A stretch of 4,234 nt of DNA from a plasmid, in assembly GCF_056746865.1 (NCBI RefSeq), contig NZ_JBWKMP010000009.1. One strand, given 5' to 3'. Under the pieces are notes generated by a model that was given only the letters and a program-made list of their open reading frames with translations, was not told the origin of the DNA and made no database searches. The position numbers were made by a program, and so were the translations under genes. Positions 1,678-4,234 of the stretch are shown piece after piece; within the stretch, counting starts at the first letter, position 1; every line of letters starts with the position of its first letter.

Positions 1678-1705
1678 ATTTACCATAACTCCTGTTGTAC
1701 GTACC
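1678..1705 (-). other. XerC/XerD site-specific recombination core (cer/psi-like multimer resolution site): GGTACGTACAA-CAGGAG-TTATGGTAAAT
   Basis: The minus strand reads GGTACGTACAA (XerC arm, 10 of 11 vs cer GGTGCGTACAA), CAGGAG (6-bp central region), TTATGGTAAAT (XerD arm, 11 of 11 vs cer). Reference sites dif, cer and psi are recalled from memory. Confidence 0.75.
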
Positions 1706-1804
1706 CCTTAAAACGCTCTCAGACGCGTTCTGACGCAAAAAACACAAAAAGACAAGAAAACACCAGGCCAAACCAGAAAAACGCGTCAGAATCGTTTTCA
1801 GGGG

Positions 1805-1822
1805 TCTGCATAACTATTCACG
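1805..1822. promoter_or_regulatory. ARG-box-like element (TCTGCATAACTATTCACG); candidate ArgR accessory site of the cer-like resolution site
   Basis: Seen: half-sites TGCAT and ATTCA separated by 4 bp, resembling the ARG box consensus (TGAAT-4 bp-ATTCA). It is centred about 120 bp from the XerCD core on the XerC-arm side, where cer-type accessory sequences lie. Assignment is tentative. Confidence 0.3.
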
Positions 1823-1897
1823 AAAGCGATGCGCGATCGGTTTCGACCGTTCAGAAGCGCGAACGGGTCAAAACGGCAAACTTTCTCATCCAGAAAA

Positions 1898-1938
1898 CGC
1901 CTCACGGGACGCGGAATTTTTTCGTGTCCCGTGAGACG
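1898..1938 (-). terminator. Probable intrinsic terminator downstream of mobA (about 13-bp stem, 9-nt loop, then UUUUCUGG on the minus strand)
   Basis: Seen: CTCACGGGAC (1901-1910) pairs perfectly with GTCCCGTGAG (1926-1935), with extra flanking pairs. On the minus strand the hairpin is followed by TTTTCTGG (plus coordinates 1890-1897). It lies about 30 nt after the mobA stop at 1969-1971. Confidence 0.45.
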
Positions 1939-1968
1939 TTGGCGGGGTTCGGGGTGCAGCCCCGGATA

Positions 1969-4188
1969 TCACATACTCATGCCCCGGTAATGTCCGGGGC
2001 GTCGTTGTTGTTGCCTGTGCTGTTCGTCCCGCTTCCATTCATGCCAGGTCTGATTAAATCCGAGTTGACGGAAGAGATAATCCGGCATCTCTTCCGGTTT
2101 GTGGACAGCAGCCAAAAGCCTGTCATGATGGCCTTTGAGCCGGAACTGCATCAGGTGCGGTTCCGGTGGGTACGGAGTATCCGCATCATGGTTTATAGCT
2201 TCTCCGTAACCTGCCAGGCATACCCCGTTCTCCGTGATGGTGCTGACTATCAGATGACTGTAATCCGGCGACGGAAGCGCAAGAACGGGACGCAGCCCGT
2301 CCTCCTGACGCACAAATCCGACAAGCACTTCCTCCGGCCCTTTGCACAACAGCAGATTCAGCGTCCTGCTGTTTCGCTCTGTCGAAAATACAACGGGCAT
2401 GAGTTGCTCCGGTGCCGCATAAGCGGTGACGTCCACCCGGTGCGCAGACGGCAGCGGAGAGGCTACGGGCCTGCGGTCGTCGCTGAAATAAAAATTATCC
2501 GGCCAGTGATGCGGCAGCGCCGGAAAACCGTAAGAGGGCCACCCCTGGCGCATCTGTTCCAGTACATGCCGGACCGTCGCACCGGAATACATTCTCACAC
2601 GCTCAGGCCGCGCCATCGTCTCATGAGATTCTGGCATTCCCTCACGTATATCCGAGACCATCACAGCCCCGCCTGGCGACAGGTAAACATTCACCGGGTC
2701 ATGAACACTCTGGGGGTAATGCGCCAGCTCATCACCCCATACCGTGAATTCTCCGGCTCTGTTACTCAGCATCATGTAGCGGGTTATCCTGCCCGTTCCC
2801 GGCTCTCTGGCACGCCCCAGCCCCGTAATAACCCCGGCTAATGCCGTTTCACGGCTCAGGCGATGGTTATCATGGTGTTTCAGCCGTGCGTCATATTCCT
2901 GTTCCTTCCGGCGCGCTTCCGCTTCGGCTTCCTCCCTGCGCCGCTCCGCTTCCCGTGCTGACAGTTTTTCTTTCAGCTCTGCCATTCCCGGCGAAATCCA
3001 CGTATTCCACTGCGTTTCAAAGGCCTGACGACGGGCGGGAATGTCCCGTTCTTTCACGGCCCTGTAGGTGCGGCGAAGAGATTCAATCTGTTTCTCGAGT
3101 TTCCAGAAGCGGAGTTGTCTTTTGCGGTATTCCGGTTCAGCCCATGTCATCAGGGGAAGCTCTGACAGGATGGACGCTACCGGACGGGCTTTTCTGAGTC
3201 CGGTCATCTCTTTTTCGAGAATATCCCGCTCTTTCACCAGCGCATTCCCCTCACGTTTGATGTCGTTTGCCTTCCCGTTCATCGCCACGAACTCCGGTGT
3301 CATCTCCCATGCGTTCCCGCATTCCTGCGGCAGTGTGGCAATGAATTCCCGCAGGGTATCCGCTGAGGCATTCGCGGCGGGAATGGTCAGATTAAGGGCT
3401 TCCGCTGCACGACGTGCGGCATCGCTGAGTTCCCGTTTCCGCACGTTCTCCTGTACCTGGATGACTGCCAGCCTTGTGCGGGAAACCTGTATTTCCAGGT
3501 TAAGGCTGTTAATCAGGCGGTTCTGCTCACCGCGTTCTGTTTCCATGCCCCGTTTTTCCATCGCACAGGCAGCCTTTCCGAGGTGAAGGCCCGGCGCTTT
3601 CTCCAGTCCCTGACGCTCGTATGAACGATGGTCTATCTCTTCCTGGTAGCCGGCGTTCGCAAGCGCTCTGTTCGCATGGTCAGCCCATGATGCGCGCCAC
3701 GTCTCGGCGAGTGCCCGGTCGTTCCAGTCCCTGACCTTTCCTGCGAATCCCGTTTCCCCGACAGCTCTCGTGGTCAGCATGATGTGTGCATGGGGGTTGG
3801 TCCGGTCCATATGATGGAACGCCACATCGGCAATCATGCCCCGACTGACAAAGTTTTCCCGGACAAAAGCGAGAACGGCCTCCCGTGCGGCCTCGCGGGA
3901 AATCTCACGGGGAATGGCGAGTTCAATCTCCCTTGCCAGCTGGGAGTTCCGGCGCTGTTCGGCTTTCTCGACCGCATTCCAGAGAACGGAACGGTCACCA
4001 CACCAGGACGGTGCATTCACAGGGGTGAGAATGACCGCATCATCAACGCCGCGTTTACGGGTGTAATCGTGGGTTAATCCGGTACGGTCATCGGGTATGA
4101 CAGAGCCGGAACGGTAGGCAGCAGAAGCAACGGCACTGTAGCCGTTTTTTCGCGAAATGATTTTCATGCTGAGATGATAAATCGCCAT
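1969..4188 (-). CDS. mobA: MOBQ-family relaxase MobA (MobA/MobL-type), 739 aa: N-terminal relaxase domain, charged coiled-coil linker, about 295-aa C-terminal domain of unknown function
   Basis: The N-terminus MAIYHLSMKIISRKNGYSAVASAAYRSG closely resembles RSF1010 MobA (MAIYHLTAKTGSRSGG...), with the catalytic Tyr at residue 25 (codon 4114-4116). His-rich metal-binding motif HHMDRTNPHAHIM is at residues 125-137 (about 3778-3816). The charged linker spans residues about 405-440. The C-terminal domain (about 1972-2856) was not recognized. Confidence 0.9.
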   Translation of the reverse strand: MAIYHLSMKIISRKNGYSAVASAAYRSGSVIPDDRTGLTHDYTRKRGVDDAVILTPVNAPSWCGDRSVLWNAVEKAEQRRNSQLAREIELAIPREISREAAREAVLAFVRENFVSRGMIADVAFHHMDRTNPHAHIMLTTRAVGETGFAGKVRDWNDRALAETWRASWADHANRALANAGYQEEIDHRSYERQGLEKAPGLHLGKAACAMEKRGMETERGEQNRLINSLNLEIQVSRTRLAVIQVQENVRKRELSDAARRAAEALNLTIPAANASADTLREFIATLPQECGNAWEMTPEFVAMNGKANDIKREGNALVKERDILEKEMTGLRKARPVASILSELPLMTWAEPEYRKRQLRFWKLEKQIESLRRTYRAVKERDIPARRQAFETQWNTWISPGMAELKEKLSAREAERRREEAEAEARRKEQEYDARLKHHDNHRLSRETALAGVITGLGRAREPGTGRITRYMMLSNRAGEFTVWGDELAHYPQSVHDPVNVYLSPGGAVMVSDIREGMPESHETMARPERVRMYSGATVRHVLEQMRQGWPSYGFPALPHHWPDNFYFSDDRRPVASPLPSAHRVDVTAYAAPEQLMPVVFSTERNSRTLNLLLCKGPEEVLVGFVRQEDGLRPVLALPSPDYSHLIVSTITENGVCLAGYGEAINHDADTPYPPEPHLMQFRLKGHHDRLLAAVHKPEEMPDYLFRQLGFNQTWHEWKRDEQHRQQQRRPGHYRGMSM

Positions 4189-4234
4189 TTCTGCCGTAAT
4201 GCCTTTTTGCCGTTTTCTTTTAGCGTCGCAGACC

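Follow-up and report, generated by a model that had tools for sequence, protein, structure and literature searches.

The window analysed here (4234 bp, NZ_JBWKMP010000009.1) is a complete circular plasmid, ColE2-like (Col156, MOBQ4), and the question that it raises is what becomes of transcription at the end of the relaxase gene mobA (1969-4188, minus strand, 739 aa, stop codon 1969-1971), where a strong hairpin precedes a cer-like multimer resolution site (1680-1887, minus strand) and the ColE2-type rep (614-1522), which is the next gene downstream on the same strand. A preliminary description of the sequence had taken a perfect 10-bp inverted repeat with a U-tract on its minus-strand side to be the terminator of mobA, insulating the resolution site and the rep promoter from read-through. 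It is suggested here, with a probability of about 0.5, that the hairpin at 1896-1940 together with the UUUUCU that follows it is in this plasmid a factor-independent mobA terminator that insulates cer and rep. Judging by its distribution, the hairpin itself appears to be one copy of a portable plasmid module, which was not built for mobA.

The perfect repeat is present where it had been described, with CTCACGGGAC at 1901-1910 pairing with GTCCCGTGAG at 1926-1935 (both arms in plus-strand letters), and it extends to 21-nt arms at 1896-1916 and 1920-1940 that are 86% complementary. The long hairpin so formed on the minus strand (1896-1940) is matched by the covariance model R1 with 71.8 bits (minus strand, 1879-1942). 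In the minus-strand RNA, which is the mobA sense, the fold consists of a 14-bp stem, a 1x1 mismatch, two further pairs and a 9-nt loop. Measured between the perfect arms the loop has 15 nt, which the two further pairs reduce to 9 nt, compared with about 3-8 nt in the usual terminator. The stem on the transcribed strand is GC-rich and stable, the 50-nt core reaching -29.9 kcal/mol on the minus strand. The surrounding 106-nt region (1870-1975) folds with -41.6 kcal/mol and z = -3.75 on the minus strand and, as two adjacent hairpins, with z = -5.79 on the plus strand, and on either strand none of 200 shuffles folded as well. Of 200 dinucleotide-shuffled versions of the window, 15 (7.5%) contain a perfect repeat of at least 10 bp with a loop of 3-20 nt, and the bare repeat is thus only weakly non-random; it is the conservation with covariation, given below, that shows the hairpin not to be a product of chance.

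The U-tract on the minus-strand side also exists. Read from the sequence, TTTTCT (1892-1897, minus strand) lies directly 3' of the stem, so that UUUUCU (1897-1892) abuts it in the mobA transcript; the tract is short (four U, a C and a U) and its first two U are able to pair with AA at 1939-1940. The TransTerm-like tail score is -3.36 for the 3-47 stem with the tail TTCTGG, and about -4.4 by a hand count from a 13-bp stem that leaves all four T in the tail; five of the first eight bases after this 13-bp stem are T, which makes a weak U-rich tract, short and interrupted. No match to Rfam covariance models overlapped 1885-1975 on either strand at E values up to 1, and a generic terminator scan overlooked the hairpin because its loop limit is 8 nt. 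Nearby, a further terminator-like hairpin, ATGCCCCGG-TAATGT-CCGGGGCGT followed by CGTTGTTGTT, lies on the plus strand at 1979-2002 within the last mobA codons, and three copies of CCCCGG/CCGGGG (including 1959-1972 and 1987-2000) permit alternative pairings across the mobA stop codon.

The maintenance of the structure is seen in an alignment, A1, of 32 distinct hairpin variants, which is nearly gapless and was scored over a 21-pair structure. Standard pairs occupy 71% of its cells, and sliding the partners by 1-3 columns lowers this to 29-40%; 11 pairs have changed on both sides, and the observed values were reached by none of 500 shuffles on any of five measures. At least eight self-complementary versions of the upper half of the stem occur (among them GACGCGAAAAAATTCCGCGTC, CAGGGAGCGAAAAGATTTCGCTCCCTG, GGGCCACAAAATTTTTTGTGGCCC, CCGGATTAAAATCCG, CGCGAAAGGATTTCGCG and ACGCAATAAATTGCGT), and the lower stem is found in the compensatory sets CCTC/GAGG, TTTC/GAAA, CTTC/GAAG and CACATC/GATGTG; a covariance model made from A1 recovers every copy. 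In about 70% of the variants the upper stem is separated from a 4-bp lower helix (AACG/CGTT) by a 4x4 internal loop (CCTC opposite TCAC), and the hairpin of the window is of the form in which the lower stem is fully paired. RNAalifold, applied to a MAFFT alignment, gives a weak consensus of -2.6 kcal/mol on the mobA strand and -8.3 kcal/mol on the other; in that alignment the apex columns are misaligned by indels, so that pair counts there are underestimated. Two colicin-plasmid variants, L113 and L147, have the same perfect 20-bp palindrome except that its apex is inverted between them (AAAATTTTTT in one, AAAAAATTTT in the other), which is the expected product of loop inversion by recombination between the arms.

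The position and orientation of the hairpin fit the termination of mobA. It lies 27 nt past the mobA stop and is co-oriented with the gene, and on the minus strand from mobA to rep (1969 to 1522) the generic scan shows no further terminator-like site; a tail score of -3.4 with a hairpin energy of -29.9 kcal/mol would pass for a terminator by the usual standards. Across the relatives the hairpin follows three different co-directional open reading frames (ORFs), namely the 739-aa MobA, a 516-aa MobA and a 176/177-aa ORF, at a distance of 15-37 nt. It stands upstream of cer and rep in the window and in L004, L006, L009 and L012, upstream of a colicin promoter in two mobilisation (MOB) backgrounds (L001, L097) and upstream of a ColE1-type cer in L108b. 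The gene order of the colicin plasmids, mobA, block, hairpin, TTTTCT, SOS promoter, col-imm-lys, cer and rep, places the hairpin before a lethal operon. A run of at least four T follows the stem in all 16 variants that are ColE2-like or adjacent to a colicin operon or cer, and in none of the 21 from ColpVC and other ColE1-like plasmids; it occurs with at least five different downstream sequences, among them the cer flank, two colicin promoters, AT-rich cargo (preceded by TTTTTTT) and the ColE1-type cer of L108b. The fully paired lower stem is found only with the T-run, in 8 of these 16 variants as against 0 of 21. A T-run and a perfected stem that are specific to context fit the co-option of the hairpin as a terminator and insulator.

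Given this arrangement, RNA polymerase would pass the mobA stop at 1969, transcribe the C-rich block and then the GC-rich stem and pause on the U-run, and formation of the stem would free the transcript near 1888-1893. Transcription of the mob region would in this way be kept out of the cer-like site (1887-1680), the rep leader and rep and, in the colicin-bearing relatives, out of the SOS-controlled colicin promoter; the gain of a run of at least four T and of a fully paired lower stem in the ColE2-like lineage would represent co-option of the module. Termination at this site, and insulation as the benefit under selection, are what we infer from these features. Rozhon et al. (2010, PMC2831885) argue for a need to control transcription that enters cer, and the rule of cer/mrs orientation in ColE1-like plasmids set out there concerns the same problem, transcription into cer that can disturb the Xer/ArgR/PepA complex and the control of Pcer. 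That work explains the fixed orientation of cer and not a terminator, and the hairpin is not described in it; here the hairpin borders the accessory sequences of cer in the ColE2-like plasmids and, among the ColE1-like ones, in L108b. The arrangement resembles the intrinsic terminators that act as insulators at the edges of modules in mobile elements, of which one is described at the end of Tn916 (PMC11658703), in having a GC-rich stem and U-run directly after a stop codon and in its site between a mobilisation gene and cer, the rep leader or a colicin promoter. It differs from them in its 9-15-nt loop, in a U-run that is only UUUUCU, in the existence of copies without a U-run and in a family stem that is better on the other strand.

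These differences belong to a set of observations that weigh against termination as the function of the hairpin. The U-run is short and interrupted, with two U that the stem can absorb, and the loop is large. In L001, the commonest colicin-plasmid variant, a 3x3 internal loop separates the T-run from the strong stem, which would make it a poor terminator where insulation should matter most, and in L012 no co-directional gene ends at the hairpin. The hairpin is kept without a T-run, and with compensatory changes, in 2-kb rolling-circle plasmids and in ColE1-like plasmids. Furthermore, with RNA parameters the G-rich strand, which is not the mobA strand, has the better fold in 36 of 37 variants, the mean difference being -7.6 kcal/mol, and DNA parameters give the same result for 35 of the 37; the positions that are not Watson-Crick pairs in the mobA sense comprise 71 cells of A.C and 8 of G.T, an asymmetry that falls, on a rough count, to about 15 versus 8 as independent events. 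This strand bias is the reverse of the prediction for an RNA hairpin on the mobA transcript. Changes in a palindrome that look compensatory can, moreover, arise by hairpin-templated repair without selection. The terminator first proposed for mobA is partly supported: position, orientation, strength of the stem and U-run fit it, and to these must be added the portability of the module, its presence where both mobA and the T-tract are missing and the bias towards the opposite strand.

The portability is apparent from searches with the intergenic segment. The module comprises the C-rich block (1968-1941, minus strand) and the long hairpin, the latter flanked by CCAACG and CGTT, and the segment is found in 416-424 PLSDB records, many of which do not carry this mobA; of 5426 complete E. 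coli genomes, 245 contain it, at 305 plasmid places and no chromosomal one. A pattern scan of metagenomes added further usable variants, a pattern scan of a genome collection returned 43 matches of which 2 were real, and in a phage collection the block was matched only by tiny plasmid-like records. The hosts are ColE2-like, ColE1-like and rolling-circle ColpVC replicons. In ColE2-like hosts the hairpin follows the 516-aa MobA in L004 and L005 and the 176/177-aa ORF in L006 and L009; the ColpVC hosts are 2.0-2.1 kb in size and encode only a Rep_1 rolling-circle initiator (L003, L010); and further hosts are the Col(MP18) plasmid L011 and the ColE1-like pHW30076, which has two copies, and pYUSHP2-6. 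Across the three replicon types the module keeps one orientation with respect to RNAII or rep transcription. In ColE1-like and ColE2-like plasmids the same is true with respect to the ColE1 L-strand assembly-site homolog, and in ColpVC plasmids with respect to rep. The literature searched on ColE2 single-strand initiation (ssi) sites, PAS-BH, factor Y sites, pVCM01 and pKYM contains no published description of the hairpin and gives no coordinates.

Two features of these plasmids indicate that the module lies at boundaries of exchange. Directly beyond the T-run of the window is a junction at 1888-1891, between TTTTCT and GAGAAA, at which relatives carry insertions: the colicin E2 operon of the 6.7-kb relatives is inserted there, downstream of the hairpin (L001 3873-6368), and in L005 a different cargo gene is flanked by two copies of the hairpin and its 3' flank (3335-3398 and 4696-4758). 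The junction at 1888-1891 is a hot spot for the insertion of cargo in the plasmid family. In ColpVC-type plasmids a MOBQ4-type origin of transfer (oriT) lies between inverted repeats that terminate outwards in the block (L010 1073-1156 / 1412-1495; L003 1077-1105 / 1579-1607; L011 1208-1315 / 1687-1794), the repeat being perfect over 84 bp in pVCM01, and among such plasmids and metagenome contigs some have the oriT in one orientation, some in the other and some as a pair of inverted copies. The ColpVC oriT thus looks like an invertible or portable cassette.

Other roles considered for the hairpin were set aside. It is not an oriT, as the motif TAAGTGCG|C 3' of an inverted repeat occurs only at 31-39 and not near 1896-1968. 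It is not part of the cer or Xer accessory sequence, there being no fixed distance to the Xer core: the module is found without any cer core in the ColpVC plasmids, L008 and L007, and in L005 the gap between module and cer is 1.3 kb of cargo. Identity with the palindrome termed ssi in pIGRK/pHW126 is not supported, given that this ssi has been likened to ColE1-type sites (PMC6854812), and the G+C content of 31-37% of the pIGRK/pHW126 plasmids (PMC2831885) also counts against it.

A second, weaker hairpin had been placed across the 3' end of mobA. The hairpin is real, with a start one base from that first given (CGGGG at 1950-1954, TGCAG, CCCCG at 1960-1964), and the overlap is not: it begins 4 nt downstream of the mobA stop at 1969-1971. 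On the plus strand it extends, with wobbles, to nine pairs at 1947-1967. It is contained in the conserved block at 1941-1968, C-rich on the mobA strand and G-rich on the plus strand, which matches ColE1 1497-1522, about 35 nt from the ColE1 nic, and pMB1 GTTGGCGGGTGTCGGGGCGCAGCC, and which is identical at 32 of 34 positions to pMB1 GGTGTTGGCGGGTGTCGGGGCGCAGCCATGACC. The second hairpin is part of a block common to the ColE1/pMB1 region beside the transfer nick and not a structure of the mobA 3' end. The likeness to the bom (nic)-rop region of ColE1/pMB1 comprises near-identity over 26-34 nt to ColE1 GGTCAGGGCTGCGCCCCGACACCCGC and to the complement of that sequence in pMB1, the same order on the G-rich strand, hairpin or hairpins and then GC-rich block, with the G-rich strand nicked in both, and the presence of the hairpin of L008 and L168 in the same slot. 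ColE1 differs in having its own inverted repeats there and not this hairpin (a search with the A1 covariance model gave no match, though the block is present), and the window differs in the distance from block to nick, 1.9 kb as against about 35 nt. The bom-rop region of ColE1/pMB1 is the presumed location of the H-strand primosome assembly site (rriB / PAS-BH, factor-Y/PriA).

The strand bias and the resemblance to ColE1 raise the possibility that the module is a single-strand initiation site, either of the primosome-assembly type or a hairpin recognised by primase, on the G-rich transferred strand, where it would prime complementary-strand synthesis after mobilisation with termination as a by-product. 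This is unlikely on balance. Several observations are consistent with it. In the window the MOBQ nick motif TAAGTGCGC has a single occurrence, on the plus strand at 31-39, preceded by the inverted repeat ACAATC (4-9) / GATTGT (24-29), within a MOBQ-type oriT at 1-45 and 4216-4234; the plus, G-rich strand is therefore the transferred strand here, as it is in every Col156 relative and in the ColE1-like plasmids. This is the strand on which nearly all variants fold better, the mismatches being mostly A.C when read on the other strand, as well as the one that forms two adjacent hairpins over 1870-1975; hairpins on the active strand within about 60-100 nt, as in sites of the primosome-assembly type, are found at 1896-1967. 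The element is confined to plasmids among the complete E. coli genomes, its block is shared with the region next to the ColE1 nic, the hairpin of the ColE1-like L008 and L168 fills the slot of the inverted repeats native to ColE1/pMB1, and minimal 2-kb plasmids hold oriT and module close together. Hairpins of this kind, ssiA and ssiB, are primed in RSF1010/R1162 by a MobA-linked primase, and the window shares with that system a MOBQ plasmid, GC-rich hairpins on a defined strand and a relaxase with a long C-terminal extension. It differs in that no primase domain was detected in its MobA, in that the module also accompanies a shorter MobA, a ColE1-type oriT or no mob genes at all, and in having no sequence similarity beyond a short GC-rich motif. 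For the MOBQ4 group a low homology of the MobA C-terminus to SogL primases has been described (PMC6856555). Against initiation on the transferred strand, the oriT of ColpVC plasmids lies in both orientations relative to the module, so that roughly every second one of them does not transfer its G-rich strand; this disfavours a role strictly specific to the transferred strand there and indicates instead a block that serves as a recombination boundary. The non-mobilizable pHW30076 nevertheless has two copies, ColE1 has the block and no match to the hairpin model, the window already carries a separate homolog of the ColE1 L-strand assembly site (451-502), the location of the ColE1 H-strand site is presumed, and the mismatch asymmetry shrinks when independent events are counted. 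No CTG start site is conserved 3' of the hairpin, and a primase site of the G4 type was rejected on the same ground.

If the hairpin and block were instead a recombination junction, at which MOB, oriT and cargo cassettes are exchanged by homologous or hairpin/cruciform-mediated events, the palindrome would be kept by hairpin-templated repair and not by selection on RNA or priming. Unrelated replicons do share the module with breakpoints exactly between block and hairpin and between hairpin and downstream sequence; the colicin operon lies immediately 3' of the T-run, the L005 cargo gene lies between two hairpin copies, and in ColpVC plasmids inverted repeats of 29-108 nt, with the block at their outer ends, enclose an oriT found in either orientation or as an inverted duplicate. 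The flipped apex of L113 and L147 and the alternation of perfect and imperfect lower stems within lineages are also as such exchange would predict. However, a junction does not account for why the module in three replicon types always points the same way with respect to rep/RNAII transcription and to the direction of the fork, why the T-run is limited to certain contexts, or why the mismatches differ between the strands. Given that homologous exchange occurs at conserved functional sites, the same breakpoints are compatible with a function as well; a junction as the main role is considered quite improbable. A further possibility is that the C-rich strand carries a site for lagging-strand initiation or a single-strand origin; in theta replicons this strand would serve as lagging-strand template, and in the rolling-circle ColpVC plasmids it would be the one displaced. 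The C-rich strand invariably reads in the direction of RNAII or rep. In ColE1-like and ColE2-like plasmids it also holds the active homolog of the L-strand assembly site, and in Rep_1 plasmids it is the rep-sense strand; the 2-kb rolling-circle plasmids, which need a single-strand origin and are without a homolog of the ColE1 L-strand site, keep the hairpin about 300 nt upstream of the presumed double-strand origin. In those plasmids, however, the C-rich strand forms a weak hairpin of -9 to -15 kcal/mol that contains A.C mismatches, ColpVC has another candidate in a stronger hairpin followed by a T-run (L003 1734-1805), and the nicked strand in ColpVC is itself inferred; a C-rich-strand origin is considered very unlikely. 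A broader reading, less probable than not, is that of a previously undescribed portable element, restricted to the small plasmids of enterobacteria, with its primary role at the level of DNA. It would be either an initiation signal on the transferred, G-rich strand that travels with oriT/MOB cassettes, or a boundary sequence at which MOB, oriT and cargo modules are swapped or inverted among ColE1-like, ColE2-like and rolling-circle replicons, and mobA termination would be a secondary, lineage-specific co-option. Termination of mobA by the hairpin and its U-run remains the reading adopted for the window.

The setting of the locus is that of a common plasmid type. The window is 99% identical over its full length to pSI102-4 from Salmonella and to many 4234-bp plasmids of E. 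coli and Salmonella typed Col156 / MOBQ, and belongs to the MOBQ42 / ColE2-like group, of which a cer-like site is a trait (PMC6856555). The Xer core of the cer-like site, GGTACGTACAA-CAGGAG-TTATGGTAAAT at 1707-1680 as read from the sequence, lies between mobA and rep with the accessory sequences upstream of it, and a probe for the core is kept in all Col156 relatives. The sequence TGAATAGTTATGCA (1807-1820, minus strand) resembles an ArgR box and precedes the core by about 100 bp, an arrangement also seen in the cer of ColE1. MobA has a MobA_MobL (MOBQ) relaxase domain at aa 18-213; its C-terminal 300 aa (aa 438-739, window 1969-2880), for which the shorter 516-aa MobA of the relatives has a different end, gave no sequence match in Pfam, NCBIfam or PDB, and a single-sequence AlphaFold model of this region was unusable (predicted local distance difference test, pLDDT, 36.6). 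Relaxase-less ColpVC and Col(MP18) plasmids carry copies of the window oriT that are 86-97% identical.

Around the replication region, 451-502 is 85% identical (E 8e-7) to ColE1 1310-1361, presumably the ColE1 L-strand primosome assembly site. It is found some 70-150 nt past the ColE2-type origin in the downstream direction, on what should be the template of the lagging strand, and the same homolog is present in all Col156 relatives and ColE1-like plasmids examined. At 583-625 on the minus strand, just past the rep stop, the ColE2-type origin sequence CTTATCAGATAACAGCGCC is followed by a terminator-like hairpin, AGCGCC-TTTTC-GGCGCT and then TTTTTT (599-583); R1 weakly matches 568-619 (E 0.0025), near the rep stop. 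Rep has Replicase and PriCT_1 domains. At 1487-1610 there are sub-threshold Rfam PK-repBA matches on both strands (27.3 and 22.8 bits, against a gathering score of 45), which span the hairpin CGCCCCTG...CAGGGGCG (1557-1609) in the rep leader, where control by an antisense RNAI of the ColE2 type is expected. A plus-strand ORF of 91 aa occupies 133-408.

If the hairpin is simply the mobA terminator, its value is for annotation only; it would explain how a 4-kb plasmid keeps mobilisation transcription away from its site of dimer resolution and its region of copy-number control and, in its relatives, from a lethal colicin operon, and it would also mark the exact spot at which cargo is inserted in this plasmid family. 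The preliminary description missed the shared module, the relation of the second hairpin's block to the ColE1 transfer region and the bias towards the opposite strand, and beyond termination the hairpin may originally have had a role in single-stranded DNA or at a module junction. One short covarying hairpin module recurs in hundreds of otherwise unrelated small plasmids, in an orientation fixed relative to replication and with its better fold on the strand that is not that of mobA, and its wider interest lies in the modularity of plasmids and in the conversion of transferred single strands to duplex in small mobilisable plasmids.

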